From: a virus
Lineage: Duplodnaviria; Heunggongvirae; Uroviricota; Caudoviricetes
Length of the DNA: 61,745 nucleotides
IMG/VR virus record: IMGVR_UViG_3300017917_003521
Strand: one strand, 5' to 3'
A program made the translations under genes and the position numbers. Position 1 is the first letter of the stretch; each line of letters begins with the position of its first letter. Below the pieces are notes generated by a model. That model saw only the letters and a list, made by a program, of their open reading frames with translations. It was not told the origin of the DNA and made no database searches. This document shows positions 7,828 to 54,671 of this stretch, in pieces.

Positions 7828-8408
7828 ATTAAATCTTTATTTTTATCCAATAATTGATTTATTGTTTCTTCTCTTTGATGTTGTTTTATCAACCTATCTA
7901 TTGCTTCTTCATGGTCTTCTATGTTTATAACTTTAGTTACTAAACTAGCAATATAATTATCAACTATTAAAGTTAGTGTCTCTGAAGTTCTATCTATATG
8001 TTCAAAGTGAGCTAAGCAATCTTTTGACTTAATAAACATATCAATTAGATAATCAATAAACTCATCAATATTGAAATACATAGTAAACAGCTTATACCTT
8101 TTGTTTTCCGGTAAAACTCTACCATAACCAGAATCTTTGAAGATTGTAGGTGGGTCTATAAATATCTTAGCAAATACTCTTCTAACTGAAGGTAAAACTA
8201 AATCTAAAGTTTCATCCTCTTCTAAGTATAAAGCTCCCTTAAACTCATCTCTGTCAAATAGATGATATTTTTTATTAATCACATATTCTAGTAATGACTT
8301 AAATGAGTGTAAATGTTCACCACTTATTCCTTTACAAAGAGCTTCAATGATAATTTTTTTGTAACTTTCTTCTTTATAGAGATGTATGAAACTTTTTTTA
8401 GAATCCAT
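7824..8408 (-). CDS. Hypothetical protein with near-C-terminal tag
   Basis: REETINQLL near the end. Confidence 0.7.
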   Translation of the reverse strand: MDSKKSFIHLYKEESYKKIIIEALCKGISGEHLHSFKSLLEYVINKKYHLFDRDEFKGALYLEEDETLDLVLPSVRRVFAKIFIDPPTIFKDSGYGRVLPENKRYKLFTMYFNIDEFIDYLIDMFIKSKDCLAHFEHIDRTSETLTLIVDNYIASLVTKVINIEDHEEAIDRLIKQHQREETINQLLDKNKDLI

Positions 8409-8872
8409 TATTTACTAAGTACAATTTTTGGATGTCTAAAAGGTTTACCATTTAACATATAACCTTTACTAACAACATCTAATATTTTAGATTCACCTGT
8501 AGGTACAACACTAATAACCTCATGTAAATCTTCATCATATGTCTCAGTTTGAATAATTTCTATTCCTTGAGACTTTAAAAAATTCTCAAGCTTTTGAGCA
8601 ATAAGTTGAACACCTTCTCTAGCTGATTCATCTTTGATATTCTTAATTGCAATAGAAACATCATTATCCATATCAAGAATAGGAGTTACCATAGAAACCT
8701 TTGTGTTGAATCTAATCTCTTCTTTGTCTTTTACAACTCTTCTTTTGTAATTCTCAAATTCAGCATAAAGACGAACATACTTGTCTTCAGCCTGAGCTAA
8801 CTTATCTTCTAATGTTAATTCTGTTTGAGTATTCTCAACTTGTTCGTTTACTATTTCTTTATTCTCTTCCAT
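8408..8872 (-). CDS. grpE: Nucleotide exchange factor GrpE
   Basis: RLYAEFENYKRR, YDEDLHEVI, KGYMLNGKPFRHPKIV. Confidence 0.93.
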   Translation of the reverse strand: MEENKEIVNEQVENTQTELTLEDKLAQAEDKYVRLYAEFENYKRRVVKDKEEIRFNTKVSMVTPILDMDNDVSIAIKNIKDESAREGVQLIAQKLENFLKSQGIEIIQTETYDEDLHEVISVVPTGESKILDVVSKGYMLNGKPFRHPKIVLSK

Positions 8873-10765: not shown

Positions 10766-11410
10766 ATGAGTAAGTACAATAGAACATATCATTTGCCTTG
10801 GTCACCTGGTTCAACCAATGATGATAGAATATCTAATGACGTTAGTTCGTTGTTAGGTAAAGAAATTGTTATTACTGAAAAACTAGATGGTGAAAATTGT
10901 GGAATGACAGATGATGGTGTTTATGCCAGAAGTCATGCAGCATTCACTACATCACCTTGGTCTAGAGAAGTTAGACAATTACATAAAATTTCAGTTGAAG
11001 GTAATTTAGGTGATGGTGTTTATCTATTTGGAGAAAACATGGAAGGTATTCACTCTATTGAATATACTAACTTAAAATCTTACTTTTATATTTTTGGAGT
11101 TAGAGATAATAACATTTGGATTCCTTGGGATAAAGTTGAGGAATATTCTTATCTTTTAGATATACCAACGGTTCCAGTTTTATTCAAAGGTGTTGTTAAC
11201 AATGAAAAAGAATTAAAAGACTTAGTTGAAAAGTTAGTTAAAGAACAATCTTCATTAGGTGGTCCAAGAGAAGGTATTGTTGTTAGAAGTGCTTCTTTAT
11301 TTCACAACGATGATTTTGCTGAGAATGTAATGAAGTGGGTTAGAAAGGGACATGTTCAAACTGATGAACATTGGACTCGCAACTGGGTCAAAGCTAAAAT
11401 TAATTATTAA
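10766..11410 (+). CDS. RNA ligase family nucleotidyltransferase (Rnl2-like catalytic domain)
   Basis: KY.RT.HLPWSPG, motif I EKLDGEN, FGEN, EGIVVR, KWVR. Confidence 0.85.
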   Translation: MSKYNRTYHLPWSPGSTNDDRISNDVSSLLGKEIVITEKLDGENCGMTDDGVYARSHAAFTTSPWSREVRQLHKISVEGNLGDGVYLFGENMEGIHSIEYTNLKSYFYIFGVRDNNIWIPWDKVEEYSYLLDIPTVPVLFKGVVNNEKELKDLVEKLVKEQSSLGGPREGIVVRSASLFHNDDFAENVMKWVRKGHVQTDEHWTRNWVKAKINY

Positions 11411-16243: not shown

Positions 16244-16831
16244 ATGAGTGAAATTAGAATATCTTGTGCCGCATTGGCATCAATTATGATAGATGGTAAG
16301 TACCTACTTCTTTTAAATAAACGTTCTTATAGAGAAGGTAGAATTGTTTATACACCAATTGGTGGTGCTTTAGAATACTTGCCTAGTGGTAAGGCTTTCT
16401 TAGATAATTTAGGAGCAAGATATGAAAGAGAAACACCTGATTTAAGATTTAAAATGGACTCTGAAAATCTAGAACTGTTCAAGTTTTGGTTTGAAAAAGG
16501 TATAGATAGAGAAAGAGACGTTGTTAGAGAATTAACAGAAGAAATGATAGAAGAAGAAAATATCTTTGATACATTAAATTCAAATGACTATGATATATCT
16601 TACCTTAGAACAGAAACACCGATTAATCCTTATAAAGGTATTATGAATAATTTCTTCTTTGAAATATATGATGTTAGATTCTCAGAAGAAAAAATTAATG
16701 TGATTAAAGATTATATTAATAATCAAGGTCAAGTTAAAAAAGCTATATTAGTGACTGAAAAAGAAATTAAAAATGGTCTAACCATAAATAAAATAGAAAT
16801 TGGCAACAATGCCAAATCAATACTACAATGA
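16244..16831 (+). CDS. NUDIX-fold protein resembling the SMODS-associated NUDIX domain
   Basis: RISCAAL..I..GKYLL, YTPIGG, DLRF, RE..RELTEE. Confidence 0.7.
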   Translation: MSEIRISCAALASIMIDGKYLLLLNKRSYREGRIVYTPIGGALEYLPSGKAFLDNLGARYERETPDLRFKMDSENLELFKFWFEKGIDRERDVVRELTEEMIEEENIFDTLNSNDYDISYLRTETPINPYKGIMNNFFFEIYDVRFSEEKINVIKDYINNQGQVKKAILVTEKEIKNGLTINKIEIGNNAKSILQ

Positions 16832-18165
16832 AAAAACTATTTAGATATAACGAATTTTTAAAAGAAAGCGTTTCTCAAAATGCTATACCAACATATGAAC
16901 AAGCATTAGAACTATGTTCAGTTCCTGAATCACCATTTTATGAATCTAAAATGGTTGTTGATGGATATCCAGTATCTGTATTTAACTATCGTCTTGCTCA
17001 ATATAAAGACTTCTCTAATCCTATTCCTGAAAAACCAGAATTAAAAGGTTATGAAATGAGAGGATTAACATTTGTATTCGATAAAGACGGTTCTTTATTC
17101 AATAGATATGTTTTGCTTGAAAAGTTCTTTAACTTAAATCAAGTACCGGAATCTTTATACTCTGTTGTTAAAAATTACAAGATTAAATTCATAAATAATA
17201 AAGAGGATGGTTCTATCGCTTCTTTTGTTAAATTACCAAATGGTAAAATAGTTGGTAAGTCTAAAATGGGATTTGATAATGACCAGGCAGATGGTATTAA
17301 TCGTGTTTACAAAACAAACAACGAGGTTAAATCATTTGTTGATTGGGCTCTAAATAATGATATTGTTCCAATATTTGAATATGTAGCACCACATAATCGT
17401 ATAGTTTTAAGATATCCAAGTGAAGAATTAATTCTTCTTCGTCTTAGAGATAATAAGACAGGTAAACACATTGATATAAGAGAACATCTTGATAAATTAG
17501 GAACTATTAGAGTTGCACCATTTGAGGATGAAGTAAAAGACTTAGACCATTTAATTGAATTAACTGCTACTCAAGTAGACAAAGAAGGATCTATTGTTAC
17601 TTGTGAAGATGAAAACGGTAAAGACTTTTTCTTTAAGTTAAAGACTCCTTGGTACTGTGAACGTCACGGTTTATTAACCGAAGACCTTTACAGAGAGCAT
17701 GTTATTATTGGTTACATCTTAGATGATAAGATAGATGATATCTTAGGTCAAGTACCAGAGGATGAAAAAGAAGCACATATTAGAATTAACAAAATTATTT
17801 CTATTGTGAAAAGATCAATTTCTGATAAAGTTTCAGAGATTGAAAACGCTTATGACCAATTTGTAAAGTCAGGTATGACTAAAAAAGATTATGCTTTGAA
17901 ACAAAGAGTTGGTAATCCAAACTTCGGATTTGTAATGAATATGGTAAAGTCTGATGATTTGAAAAAGATGTCTAAAGAAGAAATTCTTGATATCTATGAT
18001 GATTTAGAAGACTACGAAAAAGCATTACAAAGATGTGAGCCGTATGAAATGGCTAAAGAGTGGTTAAGAGACCAAACTAAAAGATTGGCAATTGCTAGAG
18101 AATGGTTACAAAAGAAAGATCCAACACTATTCTTCAAGGATCCAGAAGAAAATGATGATAATTAA
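16828..18165 (+). CDS. T4 Rnl1-like RNA ligase with N-terminal CTS-like motif
   Basis: EMRGLTF, KFFNLNQ, KEDGS, FEYVAPHNRIVLRY, EG, KLKTPWY; starts MKKLFRYNEFLKES. Confidence 0.88.
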   Translation: MKKLFRYNEFLKESVSQNAIPTYEQALELCSVPESPFYESKMVVDGYPVSVFNYRLAQYKDFSNPIPEKPELKGYEMRGLTFVFDKDGSLFNRYVLLEKFFNLNQVPESLYSVVKNYKIKFINNKEDGSIASFVKLPNGKIVGKSKMGFDNDQADGINRVYKTNNEVKSFVDWALNNDIVPIFEYVAPHNRIVLRYPSEELILLRLRDNKTGKHIDIREHLDKLGTIRVAPFEDEVKDLDHLIELTATQVDKEGSIVTCEDENGKDFFFKLKTPWYCERHGLLTEDLYREHVIIGYILDDKIDDILGQVPEDEKEAHIRINKIISIVKRSISDKVSEIENAYDQFVKSGMTKKDYALKQRVGNPNFGFVMNMVKSDDLKKMSKEEILDIYDDLEDYEKALQRCEPYEMAKEWLRDQTKRLAIAREWLQKKDPTLFFKDPEENDDN

Positions 18166-18875: not shown

Positions 18876-20756
18876 ATGGCAAAAGATGTAATTATTGGAA
18901 TTGACTTAGGAACTACCAACTCTTGTGTTGCAGTAGTTGAAGGTGGTGAACCAATAGTAATCACCAACTCTGAAGGTAAAAGAACAACTCCCTCTGTTGT
19001 AGGCTTTACTGACAAAGACAGAAAAATTGGTGACCCAGCTAAAAGACAAGCGGTTACTAATCCAAAAAACACAATTTATTCAATTAAAAGATTTATTGGT
19101 AAAGACTATTCAGTTTGTACCGATGAAGTTAAAAAAGTTCCATATCAAGTTGTTAAATCTGGGAATAATGTTCCAGGTGTTCAAATTGATGATAGAACAT
19201 ATACTCCTCAAGAAATCTCTGCTATGATTCTTCAGAAAATGAAGAAAACTGCTGAAGATTACTTAGGTTATGAAGTAAAAAGAGCTGTTATTACAGTTCC
19301 TGCTTACTTCGGTGACGCTGAAAGAACTGCAACAATTGAAGCTGGTGAAATCGCTGGTTTGAAAGTTGAGCGTATTATTAATGAGCCTACTGCTGCTGCC
19401 TTAGCTTATGGTTTAGACAAGAAGAATACAGATTCTAAAATCTTAGTATTCGACTGTGGTGGTGGTACTCATGACGTATCAGTTCTAGAAATTGGTGATG
19501 GTGTATTTGAAGTTAAATCTACTGACGGTGATACTCACTTAGGTGGTGACGACTTTGACAATGCTATTATCAATTGGATGGTTGAAGAGTTTAAATCCGA
19601 ACACTCTATGGATTTATCTAAGGACCCAATGGCTCTTCAACGTTTGAAGGAAGCGGCTGAAAAAGCTAAGATTGAGTTATCATCTACTTCTCAATCTGAA
19701 ATCAACCTTCCTTATATCACTGCGAAAGATGGTATGCCTTTACACTTTGTAAAACAATTAACTAAAGCTAAGTTTGATCAAATGACTTCTGGTCTTGTTG
19801 ATAGAGCGATTGCTTGTGCTAAATCTGCTTTGAAAAGTGCTGGGTTAAAACCATCTGACATTGATGAGGTTATTCTTGTTGGTGGTTCTACAAGAATTCC
19901 TGCTATTCAAGAAGCATTAGAAAAATACACTGGTAAGAAGCCAAACAAATCAGTTAACCCTGATGAAGTTGTTGCTCTTGGAGCCGCTATTCAAGGTGCT
20001 GTTTTAACTGGTGGTATTACAGACGTATTACTTCTTGACGTAACTCCACTCTCATTGGGTATTGAGACTATGGGTGGTGTAATGACGAGATTGATTGAAG
20101 CTAACACTACAATCCCTACTCGTAAATCTGAAACATTCTCTACTGCTGCTGATAATCAACCATCTGTAGAAATTCACGTTCTACAAGGTGAAAGACCAAT
20201 GGCTAAGGACAACCGTTCTCTTGGTAGATTCCATCTTGATGGTATTATGCCAGCTCCTAGAGGTATTCCTCAAGTAGAGGTAACATTAGATATTGATGCT
20301 AATGGTGTACTTTCAGTATCTGCTAAAGACAAAGCATCTGGTAAGGAAAACAAAATCCGTATCGAAGGTGGTTCTCAATTGTCTAAAGAAGAGATTGAAA
20401 GAATGAAAGCTGAGGCTGAAGCAAATGCTGAGTCTGACCGTATCGAAAGAGAATTGGTCGATAAAGTAAATATGGCTGATAACCTTATCTTCCAAACAGA
20501 AAAACAAATTAAAGAGTTTGCTGATAAATTAACAGAAGATGATAAGTCTGCTTTGAATACTGACTTAGAAGCGTTAAAAACAGCTCATTCATCTAAAGAT
20601 GCTCAAGCAATTGATACGGCATCAGAGAAATTGAATTCAACTTGGTCAACAATCTCAACAAGATTGTATCAAGAGACTCAATCAGAACCACAAACTTCTA
20701 ACACCGACAGTGGTAATGGCGATGTAGAAGATACTTCTTACGAAGAAGTTAAATAA
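18876..20756 (+). CDS. dnaK: Chaperone DnaK (Hsp70)
   Basis: [44 protein letters not shown]. Confidence 0.98.
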
Positions 20757-30066: not shown

Positions 30067-30624
30067 TTAAATGTTTTTATCAATTTGCATAGTATTCAAC
30101 TCAACAAGAGTTTTTCTTCCAAAAATTAAAACAGAAACTTTAACTCTTTGATCAGTTATACTTTCAATTGTACCGGTGAATGAATTGAATGGTCCATCCA
30201 TGATTTTTACTTCTTCACCTACCATATATTTATTTAAGTTTTCTTGCTCAACTGTAACTTGTTCTTGAATACCTATCATTCTTTCAACTTCTTTCAATGA
30301 AAGAACTTGAGGTAATTTCGATCTATCAGACAAAAGTCCTGTAGCGCCATCACATCCTTTTACGAAGTGAGCTAATTCACCAATTGATTTGGTTTCTACA
30401 AAAATATAACCAGGATACATAACTTTTTCTCTTGTAACTTTTTTACCGTTCTTTAAGAAGAAGCTTTTTTCAGTTGGAACTAATACTCTACCAACGACAC
30501 CCATTAGATCTCCTTTTTCAGCTTCTTTTCTTAACTTTTCTGATACAGATCTTTCTCTATTAGATTGAGCTCTAACTATGTACCATTTCATTGTTGTTTC
30601 TTTTTCCATTGTATTTGTATTCAT
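30067..30624 (-). CDS. nusG: Transcription elongation factor NusG
   Basis: WYIV..SNRE, MYPGYIFVE, KOW GEEVKIMDGPFNSFTG, VLIFGRKTLVEL. Confidence 0.93.
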   Translation of the reverse strand: MNTNTMEKETTMKWYIVRAQSNRERSVSEKLRKEAEKGDLMGVVGRVLVPTEKSFFLKNGKKVTREKVMYPGYIFVETKSIGELAHFVKGCDGATGLLSDRSKLPQVLSLKEVERMIGIQEQVTVEQENLNKYMVGEEVKIMDGPFNSFTGTIESITDQRVKVSVLIFGRKTLVELNTMQIDKNI

Positions 30625-40468: not shown

Positions 40469-42694
40469 ATGAGACTGTTTATCCTTGTTAGTTTATTATT
40501 TTTAAACTTGTTTACTTATGCACAATTTTGTCCTTTTTTAGGACCTGATCAATTTTTACCTTGTGGTGTTTCATCAACAACACTAACAGCTGATTTAAGT
40601 CAGTGTACACCTGGTAATAATCCAAATCAAACAACAAACTACGGAGTATCATCGATACCTTATGTAGCTCAAACAAATACAGGTAATCAGCTATTCATGG
40701 GTGATGATACTCAACAAGGACCATTTCAAATTGGATTTAACTTTTGTTACTTTGGACAAACCTACACACAATTTTGGGTTGGTTCGAATGGATGGATATC
40801 TTTCTCTGGTGGACAACCTACTACATTCACATCTGCTTCTATACCCAATGCGGCTTTTAATATACCAAAAAACTGTATAATGGGACCTTGGCAAGATTGG
40901 CATCCAGGAATCGGTGGTCAAATTAGATATCAAGTTCAAGGTACAGCTCCTTGTAGAAAATTAGTTGTTAGTTGGATTAATATGCCGATGTTTGGTTGTA
41001 CTCAAACTTTAGGTACTTTTCACATCGTAATATACGAATCATCAAATTATATTGAAAATCATATTCAATCTAAACAGTTTTGTAATTGGGCTAACGGTAC
41101 AGCTGTTCAAGGAATACACAATCAAGCAGGTACTATAGGAATCACAGTTCCTGGTAGAAACTCAACTCAATGGATTGCTAATAATGATGCTTGGAGATGG
41201 ACTCCATCTGGTCCAGTTGTAACACCTACTTTAACTTGGTATCAAATTGGTAACCCAAATCCAATTGGAACTGGACAAACAATTACAGTTAATCCACCAG
41301 CCGCTGGTGCAAACTATACTTGTAGATTTGTTTACCCTACTTGTAATGCTGGTTGGTCAAGTTGTAATACCGGTCAAGGTCTAGGTCCAGATACGGTATT
41401 TGTACAACCAGGTCCTCCTAATTTAAGTCCACCTGCTGTTAATATAACTGATCCAACTTGTCATAATAGTTGTGATGGTTCTATAAATATAGTTCCAAGT
41501 AGTGGTGTAGCTCCTTTTACTATATCTTGGACTAATCCAGTATTACCATCAAATTTCACTCAAATTGGTTTATGTAGTGGTCAATATTTATTTACTCTTC
41601 AAGATGCTTTGGGTTGTAATATATCATCTTTTGCTAATTTGATAAATCCAGATATGGTTGTTATAAATTCAATTAATGGATTAGATACAATATGCGCAAA
41701 CTCAACAACCAATACATATAATGTTCTATCTAACACCAATTTTAACTATACTTGGTCAACTACACTTGGTCAAATAACAAATGGTCAGGGAACTAATCAA
41801 ATTAATCTTAGTGCTAGTGGAATAAATGGTTCAATTTATAATACCAATATATCTGTTTATGCTGACTCTGCTGGTTGTTTAAGTCAAACAGAAAATTTAA
41901 ATGTTACTATTTTAGACGTTATTCCAAGTATTGATAATTTAGGTCCTTTTTGTGAATACGATAGTTGTGTAAATTTAACGGCTCAGCCAATAGGTGGATT
42001 TTTTACAGGAAATAATTTAGTTGGAACACAATACTGTCCAAATAACGGATTTATAGGAAGCGACACTGTATTATACACATACAACCAATCTGGTTGTCAA
42101 TTTACAGATAATATAATAGTTAATGTATTTGGTAGACCTTTAATATCTGAAATTTATAATGAACTAGGTGACCAAGGTTCGCAGTTTATAGAACTTTGTA
42201 TAGGAGATAGTATTACAAATACTTATATGGTTAATCAAATTGGAAACGGTATAAACATATGGGATTTTAACAATACTCAAATAACATCACAGAATCTTCA
42301 ATCAACGTGGAATCAAACAGGTGGTTTCTACATATCAGTTGTTAACTATGAAAATGGTTGTTATTCAAATCCTCAAGACTTTTATATAAATATAGAACAA
42401 TGTCCAGAAGATATAATCTATATTCCAAATAGTTTTACACCAAATGGTGATGAATTAAATCACTACTGGCTTCCTGTTTTAAGTCAAGGAATTGATGAAT
42501 ATGATTACAATCTTGTTATATTTAATAGATGGGGTAATATTTTATTTGAGTCAAATAATCCTTTAGTTGGCTGGGATGGATATTATCAAAACTTACCTTG
42601 TCCGGTTGGTGTTTATGTTTATAGAGTTAATTATAAACTAAAAGGAACAACAATTGAAAAAATTGTTATAGGACATATAAATTTATTAAAATAA
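40469..42694 (+). CDS. Secreted adhesin-like protein with a T9SS type-B (gliding-motility-associated) C-terminal domain
   Basis: Signal peptide; SprB-like PTC...CDGSI..G.APFT..W; YIPNSFTPNGD..N, IFNRWG, GWDG, GVYVY, GHINLLK. Confidence 0.88.
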   Translation: MRLFILVSLLFLNLFTYAQFCPFLGPDQFLPCGVSSTTLTADLSQCTPGNNPNQTTNYGVSSIPYVAQTNTGNQLFMGDDTQQGPFQIGFNFCYFGQTYTQFWVGSNGWISFSGGQPTTFTSASIPNAAFNIPKNCIMGPWQDWHPGIGGQIRYQVQGTAPCRKLVVSWINMPMFGCTQTLGTFHIVIYESSNYIENHIQSKQFCNWANGTAVQGIHNQAGTIGITVPGRNSTQWIANNDAWRWTPSGPVVTPTLTWYQIGNPNPIGTGQTITVNPPAAGANYTCRFVYPTCNAGWSSCNTGQGLGPDTVFVQPGPPNLSPPAVNITDPTCHNSCDGSINIVPSSGVAPFTISWTNPVLPSNFTQIGLCSGQYLFTLQDALGCNISSFANLINPDMVVINSINGLDTICANSTTNTYNVLSNTNFNYTWSTTLGQITNGQGTNQINLSASGINGSIYNTNISVYADSAGCLSQTENLNVTILDVIPSIDNLGPFCEYDSCVNLTAQPIGGFFTGNNLVGTQYCPNNGFIGSDTVLYTYNQSGCQFTDNIIVNVFGRPLISEIYNELGDQGSQFIELCIGDSITNTYMVNQIGNGINIWDFNNTQITSQNLQSTWNQTGGFYISVVNYENGCYSNPQDFYINIEQCPEDIIYIPNSFTPNGDELNHYWLPVLSQGIDEYDYNLVIFNRWGNILFESNNPLVGWDGYYQNLPCPVGVYVYRVNYKLKGTTIEKIVIGHINLLK

Positions 42695-46515: not shown

Positions 46516-47010
46516 ATGGTATCTCTCAATAAAGAATATAATCAAATTGTGAACCTTACTAAGTTCAATGTGAACTTCAGTAAGTTTATTCATAATAATG
46601 ATCTTTTGAGTCATAGCCCAGACTATATTCTTGAAAAGTATAATCATTGGATTGGATTTGAACCAACAGTTGAATTCAAAGTTTACACTCCAGATAGTAT
46701 GACTGATTTTTTTCTACAATATAGTAAAAGATGGGCAACTTATGATAGGTATTGTAAAGTTGACCCAAGTACAGGAAAGAGTCGTGTTAAGAATATTTTG
46801 ATGTATCTTTATTCAACTCAAAGTATGAATTTAGTACAAATGTCTGAGAAGTTTGAAGAGTATATCGGACCTATGAATATGATATCAGATGTACCAGATA
46901 AAAGAGGACTACATCAACTAACAGAAAAATTTGTTGGTGAAGTATTAGAAAAAAACAATGACAATATGAAAATTGTCTTACGAGATATGAAAATTGGAAG
47001 TATAATATAA
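46516..47010 (+). CDS. Hypothetical protein with C-terminal tag
   Basis: TATATTTG 4 nt before the ATG; ends RDMKIGSII. Confidence 0.72.
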   Translation: MVSLNKEYNQIVNLTKFNVNFSKFIHNNDLLSHSPDYILEKYNHWIGFEPTVEFKVYTPDSMTDFFLQYSKRWATYDRYCKVDPSTGKSRVKNILMYLYSTQSMNLVQMSEKFEEYIGPMNMISDVPDKRGLHQLTEKFVGEVLEKNNDNMKIVLRDMKIGSII

Positions 47011-47012
47011 TT

Positions 47013-47221
47013 TAACTAAAGAAGGACGTGTAGCACTACCCGTAAGGATGTGAGCAAAACTCAGCCAATCTTTGCTTAAGATAGGAGACCTAATAAGTCG
47101 ATAGCACTATCGAGGATTAAACTCAAAATAGACTAGCGGGTGAGCAACGCAATGATGTCGAGGTAGAGGACAATAGATAAATTACACGATAAAGCAGAAG
47201 GCTGGTTATTCTCTTTAGTTA
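47013..47221 (+). ncRNA. rnpB: Minimal RNase P RNA
   Basis: P1 TAACTAAAGA/TCTTTAGTTA; P2 CGTGTAG/TTACACG; P3 hairpin; P4 AAC(U)CAGCC/GGCTGGTT with bulged U; GAGCAA; P15 loop containing GGU; AGATAAAT; CAGAA before the 3' P4 strand. Confidence 0.88.
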
Positions 47222-47770
47222 TATTATATTATTAGATTTAAGATCTCTATTATATTTACTACAAAGAGGTTGTAAATTTGTAAAATGATTTAGTTTGTAA
47301 ATTTCTTCTTCTGTTTTTGCTGATGATACCGGTATTATATGGTCGATATCCCAACCATAGTTAAACTCACCATTGTATAAACCTCTGTTTTCCCAATTCA
47401 TCCAATTCTCAAATTTAGATTCTAAGTATAATTTAAATTCTTCAAATGAGCAACCAAGTATAGATTCTGTTTTAATATTCTTTGAAAACCCATTTCTTAA
47501 TATAGCAGTTCTAATATTTCTAGAAATTGATGATCTTATAGCAAATAAAGGATTTGTTTTTCTTTTCTCTTTTAATTGCTCACTTCTTGATTTTTTTCTT
47601 TTCTCTTTATTTTCTAACTCCCATCTTTTCTGTCTATCTCTTGTCTTATCTCTGTTATTTTCCCTGTAAGATTTTGAATTTTGTCTATGACAAACTTTAC
47701 AAATTCCTTTGTGTTTATAGAATTCATTTAAGTCCTTATCTACATTACATTTTTTACAAATTTTAGACAT
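47219..47770 (-). CDS. HNH homing endonuclease (start reassigned to 47770)
   Basis: KICKKC..K...EF..CKVC; LGCS..E.K..LES.F..WMNWEN.G..WDIDHIIP..LNHFTNLQPL...N. Confidence 0.88.
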   Translation of the reverse strand: MSKICKKCNVDKDLNEFYKHKGICKVCHRQNSKSYRENNRDKTRDRQKRWELENKEKRKKSRSEQLKEKRKTNPLFAIRSSISRNIRTAILRNGFSKNIKTESILGCSFEEFKLYLESKFENWMNWENRGLYNGEFNYGWDIDHIIPVSSAKTEEEIYKLNHFTNLQPLCSKYNRDLKSNNII

Positions 47771-47818
47771 ATTTTTATATATTAAAAATCTTTTAGTATA
47801 TTTGTAGGTATAAATAAT

Positions 47819-48433
47819 ATGGAACAAAAGTTAAAAGATTACATAGGTGGTAAAACTCATTACACACCTATTATGAATATCATCATTAACAATCGTTCAG
47901 AGAATTGGTATGCTGAATTGGGTAAGTATATCGCTGAAAACTTAGATGTTGAAAAAATACCCTATTTAAGTTTCTTTGTTGATAAGTTAAAAGAAAGAAA
48001 AGGTATTATCACAAAAATTAAAGATTTTATTAGTCCAGAAAGTAGAACTTATACGTCTATTGCTATCAACTTTCTAACAGGGGTGTTAGATGAAGAAGCA
48101 TTAGAGAATATGTTTGGTAAACCAATCTTTCATAGTGAATTCGGTGAAGGATTTCATGGTGAGTATGATGAAGAAACTGACGAATATGGAGAACATGAAA
48201 TTAAAGAATCTTACGCTTCTTATTTTGTAAATATCAATGGAACTGAGTTTCACATCGGTTACGACCATCGTGGAACAAACATTGAAATTCAAATAACAAA
48301 TAAATTCAATTCTACATCAAGTGATTCTTTAAATCGAGTGCAAATATACATGAATAAATTTACTGATGAAGATGCTAAAAAATGTTTTGAATCTCTAAAA
48401 AAAATCGTAGATTTGTATAAAATTAAAAACTAA
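47819..48433 (+). CDS. Hypothetical protein
   Basis: ORF track; TATATTTG at ~47797. Confidence 0.75.
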   Translation: MEQKLKDYIGGKTHYTPIMNIIINNRSENWYAELGKYIAENLDVEKIPYLSFFVDKLKERKGIITKIKDFISPESRTYTSIAINFLTGVLDEEALENMFGKPIFHSEFGEGFHGEYDEETDEYGEHEIKESYASYFVNINGTEFHIGYDHRGTNIEIQITNKFNSTSSDSLNRVQIYMNKFTDEDAKKCFESLKKIVDLYKIKN

Positions 48434-54591: not shown

Positions 54592-54671
54592 GCGGGTAGA
54601 GTCTAATGCGGCGTGGAAGTCGCGGGCGCCTCTAAAACGTCTGGCACCGGGTTCAAATCCTGCTATCCGCA
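54592..54671 (+). tRNA. Atypical tRNA with anticodon CUA (amber suppressor-like)
   Basis: Acceptor GCGGGTAG/CTATCCGC, D arm GCGGC-GTGGAA-GTCGC, anticodon loop CT-CTA-AA (CTA at 54632-54634), T arm CGGG-TTCAAAT-CCTG; no encoded CCA. Confidence 0.8.

Follow-up and report, generated by a model that had tools for sequence, protein, structure and literature searches.

A probable miniature RNase P RNA of type-A ancestry in a large phage

The interval 47013-47221 on the + strand, with a closing stem P1 that extends it to ~46999-47236, very probably encodes a miniature RNase P RNA that is of bacterial type-A ancestry and is carried by a large phage. The comparison of homologs shows that the predicted fold keeps the complete type-A catalytic domain together with its conserved joining strands (J3/4, the AA of J5/15, the GGUA of L15, a J18/2-like strand and the CAGAA of J2/4). 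The initial annotation had identified the locus as a phage RNase P RNA cut down to its catalytic domain. This identification is borne out by covariation, by the joining strands, by matches of the Rfam model RF00010 to relatives and by the phage context. The window (the whole 61.7-kb stretch of DNA that was analysed) itself has the appearance of a segment of a large phage genome. It is 90% coding with the standard code, and its predicted products include T4-type topoisomerase II subunits, RNA ligases of the Rnl1 and Rnl2 types, Hsp70, GrpE, NusG, a dCMP deaminase and a DNA methylase. A further predicted protein with SprB/PKD/CHU_C domains hints at a host among the Bacteroidota.

The RNA lies in an intergenic region, 47011-47218, bounded by the stop codons of two convergent genes, ORF 46516-47010 (+) and ORF 47219-47827 (-). 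There are no ORFs of at least 40 aa inside this region under table 11, and when TAG is read as glutamine it is touched only by chance frames of 31-47 aa. The GC content of the RNA region is ~39%, versus ~29% in the flanks. The + strand folds at -53.7 kcal/mol (z = -3.3), a value equalled by none of 200 shuffles. We infer that the RNA is transcribed from this strand because of G-U pairs: 53 of 57 sequences have G-U at G47033-U47182, and 43 sequences have U-G at U47077-G47142. ARAGORN and Rfam at curated thresholds reported nothing over the whole window, and a scan for promoters and terminators gave sites no commoner than in shuffled sequences, with no terminator-like site scored at the RNA locus. 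The elements of the predicted structure and the adjoining gene are as follows (window coordinates; percentages are the fraction of paired cells among homologs).

46999..47026, + strand: 5' strand of P1; core at 47013-47022, outer part overlapping the last codons of ORF 46516-47010
47027-47033/47182-47188, + strand: P2, CGUGUAG/UUACACG; 98.2% paired, double changes in 6 of 7 pairs
47034..47052, + strand: P3 hairpin, with CAC..GUG closing pairs, a 2x2 internal loop, CC/GG and a GUAA-type loop; 93.9% paired
47053..47066, + strand: J3/4 AGCAA and the 5' strand of P4, AAC(U)CAGCC, with bulged U47061; equivalent of CR-I (bacterial GAGGAAAGUCC)
47058-60,62-66/47200-07, + strand: P4; 95.6% paired, double changes in 6 of 8 pairs, absent from the search model
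47067-47070/47115-47118, + strand: P5, AAUC/GAUU; 97.4% paired, double changes in 4 of 4 pairs
47072-47077/47142-47147, + strand: P6 pseudoknot to the P17 loop, 5' strand UUGCUU; 96.7% paired, double changes in 4 of 6 pairs, absent from the search model
47078..47114, + strand: specificity-domain stub of 37 nt with conserved GGAG and GCAC strands
47080-84/47107-11, + strand: P7-like stem in the stub; 94.7% paired
47087-89/47097-99, + strand: small hairpin inside the P7-like stem; 94.4% paired
47119-47121, + strand: J5/15 AAA; the AA at 47119-20 is invariant and aligned to 'GCAA' of RF00010
47122-24/47166-68, + strand: P15, CUC/GAG; 100% paired, with covariation
Between P15 and P16 in the arm 47122..47168, + strand: J15/16 AAAAUA
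47131-33/47157-59, + strand: P16, GAC/GUC; 100% paired, with covariation
47136-38/47148-50, + strand: P17, GCG/CGC; 99.4% paired, with covariation
47162-64 (GGU) and 47162-65 (GGUA), + strand: within J16/15 GAGGUA, in the P15/P16 internal loop
47169..47181, + strand: joiner GACAAUAGAUAAA, counterpart of bacterial J18/2 (CUAGAUAAAUGA), with P18 missing
In 47182..47199, after the 3' strand of P2, + strand: J2/4 AUAAAGCAGAA; bacterial ACAGAA, part of CR-V
47200..47207, + strand: 3' strand of P4, GGCUGGUU; bacterial counterpart CCGGCUU
47209..47236, + strand: 3' strand of P1, overlapping the stop and last codons of the minus-strand HNH gene
47219..47827, - strand: HNH endonuclease gene (Pfam HNH E=6.9e-6; phrog_1035 E=8.6e-21)

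We used covariation among homologs to assess this structure. The covariance model R1 was built from nine sequences in a trimmed alignment with nested helices only, i.e. P4 and P6 were excluded, and it matches 68 loci with E-values from 1e-12 to 1e-47. Among 60 distinct homologs from large phages and metagenome contigs, 94.0% of the cells are standard pairs, versus 33-47% in a control where the partners were slid by 1-3 columns. Changes on both sides were found in 39 of the 50 pairs, and none of 500 shuffles attained any of the observed measures. The most stringent test is that of the pseudoknots P4 and P6, as neither had a part in fitting the alignment. By these comparisons, strong purifying selection maintains the predicted fold in no fewer than 60 distinct homologs from phages and metagenomes. 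The sequence of P1 is different in every member and the stem is present in all; in the window it is a stem of ~24 bp whose duplex, computed from the window's own flanks, reaches -19.5 kcal/mol, and the mean duplex energy over 53 family members is -15.0 kcal/mol for cognate flanks versus -6.4 kcal/mol for non-cognate ones. The entire P2 is swapped (GCACA/UGUGU) in the close relative L013. P3 varies from a minimal CAC-UACG-GUG hairpin up to 30 nt.

Much of the pairing scheme of the initial annotation is recovered. Its P1 (47013-22/47212-21), which it had called extendable, does extend, and its P2, its P4 with the bulged U47061 and its TTGCTT/GAGCAA pairing, which corresponds to the P6 pseudoknot of type A, are all exact in their coordinates and show compensatory changes. 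Other helices had to be redrawn. The proposed P15, TGTC/GACA, is paired in only 71% of cells across homologs and is replaced by the P15 and P16 given above. The GGU motif that had been placed in the loop of that helix is indeed present, but its position is the internal loop separating P15 from P16, the same place as in bacterial RNAs, and not a hairpin loop. Two short hairpins that had been drawn, TAGG/CCTA and TCGATAG/CTATCGA, pair in 60% and 61% of cells, versus 94-95% for the comparative alternatives, the P7-like stem and the small hairpin inside it, which supersede both. P3, P5 and P17, which had gone unnamed, are also supported by the homologs. Outside these helices, a search for partners of the G(A/C)CA conserved downstream of P15, and of the other unpaired conserved columns, gave nothing convincing.

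The homologs were collected by sequence patterns and by similarity. A pattern based on P3 (GCACTACCC..GGATGTGAG) gave no matches in IMG/VR. The pattern that replaced it, taken from the most conserved strand (L15/J18-2), retrieved 10 contigs of up to 215 kb in IMG/VR, 69 contigs of up to 487 kb in metagenomes and 11 places in bacterial and archaeal genomes. Ten of the latter are not family members according to R1; the sole member, L087, is on a 10.7-kb contig within a Dehalococcoidales MAG. With the window copy as query, a blastn search of GenBank phages aligned its central 150 nt to LR756502.1 (642 kb) with 78% identity, and a shorter stretch to LR756511.1 (595 kb). The 735-kb records LR756501 and LR756503 are matched as well, by another family member. 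A blastn search of GenBank phages with the L009 copy gave no match. We take LR756501-03 and LR756511 to belong to the accession series of the huge-phage paper. Members are 180-276 nt long, and distant relatives (~68-78% identity) retain the invariant joining strands; GGUA, for example, is invariant in 9 of 9 aligned homologs. Already in the first three-way alignment the relatives carried GAGGAAGUUC and ACAGAAnGUnGnCUAC, which resemble bacterial CR-I and CR-V, and compensatory changes were visible in the strands that lie between the two.

These patterns bear on whether the locus is a functionless relic, i.e. a decaying fragment of a host rnpB, or else a long inverted repeat acting as a bidirectional terminator. 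In favour of such an origin are the convergent flanking genes, the closing P1 stem of ~24 bp and the lack of an Rfam match to the window copy. Yet dozens of divergent homologs preserve every helix by compensatory changes, including the two pseudoknots, the joining strands stay invariant at ~68-78% identity and no terminator-like site was scored, which makes it barely credible.

The neighbouring HNH gene abuts the RNA gene and lies outside the ribozyme. The two are linked in many relatives. The HNH product is 98% identical in amino acids in L032 and L055, the product of the gene on the other side of the RNA 68-69%. In L013 and L028 the HNH gene is broken or a remnant.

We then compared the RNA with bacterial RNase P RNAs. 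The order and nesting of the helices are those of the catalytic domain of bacterial type A: P1-P6, P15-P17, a contact between P6 and the P17 loop, and a GGU internal loop. RF00010 (RNaseP_bact_a) matches the relative L040 with 25.6 bits (E=1.7e-6), and this alignment is in register at P2, P3, GAGGAAAGUC, P5, GCAA, P15, P16/17, GGGUA, UAGAnAAAUG, the 3' strand of P2 and ACAGAA. The same alignment reduces 140 S-domain positions of the model to 42 nt and 23 P18 positions to 1 nt. The earlier claim that most of the specificity domain and P18 are absent thus holds: the domain P7-P14, with CR-II and CR-III, is not present and the window has the 37-nt stub instead, while the 3' strand of P15 leads directly into the J18/2-like strand with no P18 hairpin. 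A second relative, L087, is matched by RF00010 with 28.5 bits (E=2.8e-7) and by the archaeal model RF00373 with E=3.9e-5. The two invariant adenosines of J5/15 are the counterpart of the bacterial GCAA strand that holds A248 of E. coli, and the invariant GGUA is the counterpart of CGGGUA in the RF00010 model.

The agreement is also visible in the primary sequence. Over their last 100 nt, the window RNAs' 3' strands share GGU(A/U)G, UAGAUAAAU and CAGAA...GGCU(G)GUUA / GGCUUA with rnpB of Pelagibacteraceae and Flavobacteriaceae; the main difference between these 3' ends is the P18 hairpin, and the J18/2-like joiner is near-identical. Some relatives, namely L061, L040 and L076, carry the canonical GAGGAAAGUCCGGAC ... 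CGGCUUAC (GAGGAAAGUC(C/G)GGAC ... C(C/G)GCUUAC).

The window copy itself has no match to the Rfam RNase P models, either at the gathering threshold, at E<=10 for a 651-nt slice or at E<=0.5 for the whole window. No family member reaches the Rfam gathering score of 100 bits, the best relatives scoring 25.6-28.5 bits. A search of five whole phage records with RF00010 gave nothing at the RNA loci and two chance-level matches elsewhere, and the type-T model RF02357 had no match reported in the Rfam scans of the window or of the scanned relatives. In the reciprocal direction, R1 gave one weak match (E=0.027) among four bacterial rnpB loci, in the 3' part of the Pelagibacteraceae gene. This reciprocal test is weak. 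The case for RNase P is founded on the matches of RF00010 and RF00373 to relatives and on the architecture. The initial annotation had counted the lack of a covariance-model match and of covariation among homologs among the grounds for rejection; both were found, the model matches being those to the relatives L040 and L087. We file the RNA as a putative derived variant of type-A RNase P RNA lying outside the Rfam membership criteria, since type-A architecture and model matches of relatives stand on one side, and the lack of a window match, scores below 100 bits and a weak reciprocal search on the other. This amounts to a blind spot in annotation, as curated Rfam thresholds miss the entire family.

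The window copy departs from the consensus at several core positions. It reads GAGCAAAACUC, as do L032 and L055, against GAGGAAACUC in the family consensus. The altered consensus and its compensating partner strand, already remarked upon in the initial annotation, are real and common to the closest relatives. Its J3/4 reads AGCAA against a near-universal AGGA, i.e. it has C for the second G and one extra A, and G replaces A immediately before CAGAA. At the pair flanking the bulged U, 31 family sequences have C-G, 11 have U-A, 7 have G-C and 7 have U-G; the window thus agrees with about half of the family in having C-G, versus G-C in bacteria. Taking CR-I and CR-V together, bacteria have GAGGAAAGUCC / ACAGAAnnnGGCUUA, the family consensus is GAGGAAACUCAGCC / AACAGAAGGCUGGUUA and the window has GAGCAAAACUCAGCC / GCAGAAGGCUGGUUA. 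The window strands keep the A-run, the bulged U, CAGAA and UUA, and differ at three normally conserved positions.

The commonest context of the RNA among relatives is a tRNA array. For example, in L005 a tRNA-Glu ends at 1754, the RNA occupies ~1759-2025 and the next tRNA-Glu starts at 2030, such that the RNA fills the gap. Similar settings were found in L014, L020, L027, L034, L040, L045, L056, L061, L062, L080 and L081, and whole carrier records have 26, 24, 46 and 50 tRNA genes. Other structured RNAs occur in the vicinity of some copies: GOLLD at a distance of 1.4 kb in L010, and an SRP RNA close by in L003. Two relatives, LR756502.1 (53 bits) and the L012 contig (50 bits), encode an RnpA that has the RNR motif; in the L012 contig no tRNA was detected. 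In the 61.7-kb window, rnpA was not found with Pfam on ~70 ORFs or with a profile of the two phage RnpA against the six frames, nor were standard tRNA genes found with ARAGORN or Rfam. The window does have a tRNA-like gene with a CUA anticodon at 54592-54671. It has an 8-bp acceptor, is called by ARAGORN at a relaxed threshold only, has no match to the Rfam tRNA model and is preceded by a promoter TTGACA-17-TACTAT. This is the tRNA-CUA that the initial annotation had put forward as something the RNA may mature. For 142 phage tRNAs, the nucleotide at -1 was U in 62% of cases versus 32% in the background. U at -1 is a preference of bacterial RNase P, and the host enzyme shares the same preference. 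The CCA that the GGU of L15 would bind is encoded in 6 of 116 phage tRNA genes of the relatives. This rarity weighs against the RNase P reading, as do the absence of standard tRNA genes and rnpA from the window and the L012 contig with RnpA but no detected tRNA.

It might be argued that the RNA is a catalytically dead mimic, which soaks up host RnpA or competes for pre-tRNA and thereby redirects host tRNA maturation. The best conserved strands are those contacting the protein (J18/2-like, J2/4 and P15/L15), the S-domain, which is the source of substrate affinity, is gone, and in the window copy J3/4 and the part of P4 beside the bulged U contain bases that differ from the consensus, all of which would suit a mimic. 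We nevertheless regard it as decidedly unlikely. Covariation in 60 sequences shows that the bulged U, the P4 geometry and an A-rich J3/4 are kept, all of them needless for a sponge. Members are embedded within phage tRNA arrays. Moreover, two relatives encode an RnpA themselves, which fits the building of an enzyme rather than the starving of one. Core covariation and tRNA-array context thus disfavour the RnpA decoy as well as the relic or terminator.

If the RNA is an active RNase P, its most likely mechanism would be that of an RnpA-assisted endonuclease of tRNA 5' leaders working without the elbow ruler. The RNA would bind RnpA, either from the host or encoded by the phage as in the two related phages, and would cut the 5' leaders of pre-tRNAs by the usual metal-ion chemistry centred on P4. 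The acceptor end would be held by the GGU of L15 (at the 3'-CCA), by the A of J5/15 (at N-1) and by the protein (at the leader), and the T-loop/D-loop 'ruler' of the S-domain would have no part in recognizing the substrate. The likely benefit for the phage would be 5' processing of its own tRNAs independently of host rnpB, possibly with tolerance for odd tRNA shapes. Since the S-domain 'ruler' is absent, a non-standard tRNA geometry could be accepted.

The same enzyme could instead have other main substrates, such as polycistronic mRNAs of the phage, tRNA-like structures, or GOLLD, tmRNA-like and SRP RNAs. The window copy is near no standard tRNA gene, the L012 contig encodes the RNA and RnpA with no detected tRNA, GOLLD and SRP RNA occur close to two copies, and loss of the S-domain removes the check on the tRNA elbow. 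We think this, too, decidedly unlikely given that the readers of the acceptor end, the GGU of L15 and the AA of J5/15, are invariant, that tRNA arrays are the commonest context and that U(-1) is enriched before phage tRNAs. Cleavage of pre-tRNA leaders is still the reading we prefer.

Several known systems resemble the phage RNA in part. The bacterial type-A RNA (E. coli M1 RNA/rnpB, RF00010) has the same C-domain elements in the same order, and the phage J18/2 UAGAUAAAUGA and CR-V ACAGAA..GGNUUA are almost letter for letter those of Pelagibacteraceae and Flavobacteriaceae rnpB. However, the phage RNA is ~209 nt long versus 324-396 nt in the four bacterial genes compared, and it lacks P7-P14 and P18. 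The bacterial genes are cellular, whereas the phage family is virus-encoded, with a best score of 28.5 bits where the cut-off is 100 bits. The type-T RNA of Pyrobaculum and other Thermoproteaceae (RF02357) is likewise ~200 nt long, with the S-domain nearly gone and the catalytic domain kept, a likeness of function and not of membership. The C-domain of type T is of the archaeal kind, its partner proteins are archaeal and its gene is cellular and essential, while the phage RNA has bacterial hallmarks (the contact of P6 with the P17 loop and the GGU of L15). The Pyrobaculum type-T RNA, which lacks the S-domain, is reportedly active in catalysis and is thus a natural precedent for a working RNA of this kind. 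Isolated bacterial C-domains are catalytically active, and a type-A core without S-domain elements keeps its chemistry, usually with protein or at high salt. Such engineered RNAs, i.e. the Min 1 and Micro P constructs and isolated C-domains, have a similar parts list (bimolecular C-domain and S-domain ribozymes, PMC6783828), but they are laboratory deletions, whereas the phage family is natural, selected and diversified, with a replacement stub of its own. Theta (HDV-like) ribozymes next to phage tRNAs are also phage-encoded and tied to phage tRNA maturation (PMC10879173). In contrast with the phage RNase P RNA, which would act in trans, they are small, self-cleave in cis and have an unrelated fold.

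To our knowledge, RNase P RNA is regarded as a universal cellular ribozyme. Our full-text search of the literature turned up no report of an RNase P RNA encoded by a phage or another virus. A 2026 survey of RNase P evolution covering 635 archaeal and bacterial RPRs leaves phages unmentioned (PMC12974513), and RNase P is unmentioned in the huge-phage paper (PMC7162821). Tentatively, then, large phages could be running an orthogonal RNase P, a ribozyme made of the C-domain only and accompanied in some of them by a phage RnpA, which would mature tRNAs independently of the host and accept non-standard ones such as that at 54592-54671. Such RNAs would form the smallest natural class of the bacterial lineage and the first viral one. 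If the RNA is active, the translation-related functions of large phages would extend to tRNA 5' processing. The family would also provide dozens of natural 'minimal' bacterial ribozymes for structure-function work, including variants at near-invariant core positions, and it would explain how tRNAs are matured in phages with 24-50 tRNA genes after host RNA synthesis has been shut off.

The miniature RNase P RNA gene of the window is directly adjoined by a gene for an HNH endonuclease, and counterparts of this gene linked to the same RNA were found in related loci of large phages and metagenomes (designated by L-numbers):

window 47219-47827, (-) strand: HNH endonuclease gene
L032:5611-6162 and L055:842-1393: counterparts of the window gene, linked to miniature RNase P RNA
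L021, L034, L030/L026, L067, L013, L028 and L001: further loci listed for the RNA-linked HNH gene

Comparison with the window proteins revealed 98% identity for the HNH protein in both L032 and L055, and only 68-69% for the ORF lying across the RNA from it (46516-47010, (+) strand). The gene is broken across two frames in L013, is down to a 26-aa remnant in L028, and lies 0.7-2 kb from the RNA in L001 and L069. At the sequence level, this pattern is that of a free-standing homing endonuclease, for which the conserved RNA gene would be the landing site.

The tRNA genes of phages carrying the RNA were also analysed. The 3' CCA is encoded in only 6 of 116 tRNA genes (arrays of L102, L103, L005, L040, L062, L080, L020, L056 and L061), and C-AAAA follows many of them. 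When the set was widened to 142 phage tRNAs, U occupied position -1 in 62%. The array of L040, a 487-kb metagenome contig that also has the miniature RNA, includes a tRNA (L040:3994-4082, (-) strand) whose anticodon, as called by ARAGORN, has four bases (ggaa). The window itself has one unusual candidate:

54592-54671, (+) strand: tRNA-like gene with anticodon CUA (ARAGORN, -ps80)

ARAGORN reports it as tRNA-Pyl(cta) at -ps80 only, and the Rfam tRNA model gave no match at this position. The gene has an 8-bp acceptor stem, a canonical T-loop (TTCAAAT) and a promoter (TTGACA-17-TACTAT). The standard code otherwise suits the genome (90% coding). L004 carries a tRNA(cta) with a standard score, 5 kb away from its miniature RNA.

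Other structured RNAs accompany some relatives' copies. A GOLLD RNA with an embedded tRNA (155 bits; L010:312-770, (+) strand) lies 1.4 kb upstream of the miniature RNA in L010, and L003 has a bacterial small SRP RNA (50 bits; L003:5828-5917, (-) strand) at 0.5 kb from its copy.

The window also encodes:

8408-8872, (-) strand: GrpE
10766-11410, (+) strand: Rnl2-type RNA ligase
16828-18165, (+) strand: T4 Rnl1-type RNA ligase
18876-20756, (+) strand: full-length Hsp70/DnaK
30067-30624, (-) strand: NusG-like protein
40469-42694, (+) strand: SprB/PKD/CHU_C protein (type IX secretion signal), 741 aa

As annotated from sequence, this set is a large-phage repertoire, and it hints at a Bacteroidota host.

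No RnpA was found within the window. Two large phages that also have the miniature RNA encode homologs, each roughly 100 aa long and matching Pfam Ribonuclease_P at 50-53 bits:

L100:1498-1803, (+) strand: RnpA homolog of LR756502.1, a 642-kb phage
L101:1498-1794, (+) strand: RnpA homolog of the IMG/VR contig of L012

Both share the motif FKRAVDRNRxKRLxRES. With protein and RNA both encoded in the same genomes, a complete phage RNase P holoenzyme could assemble in these two phages.
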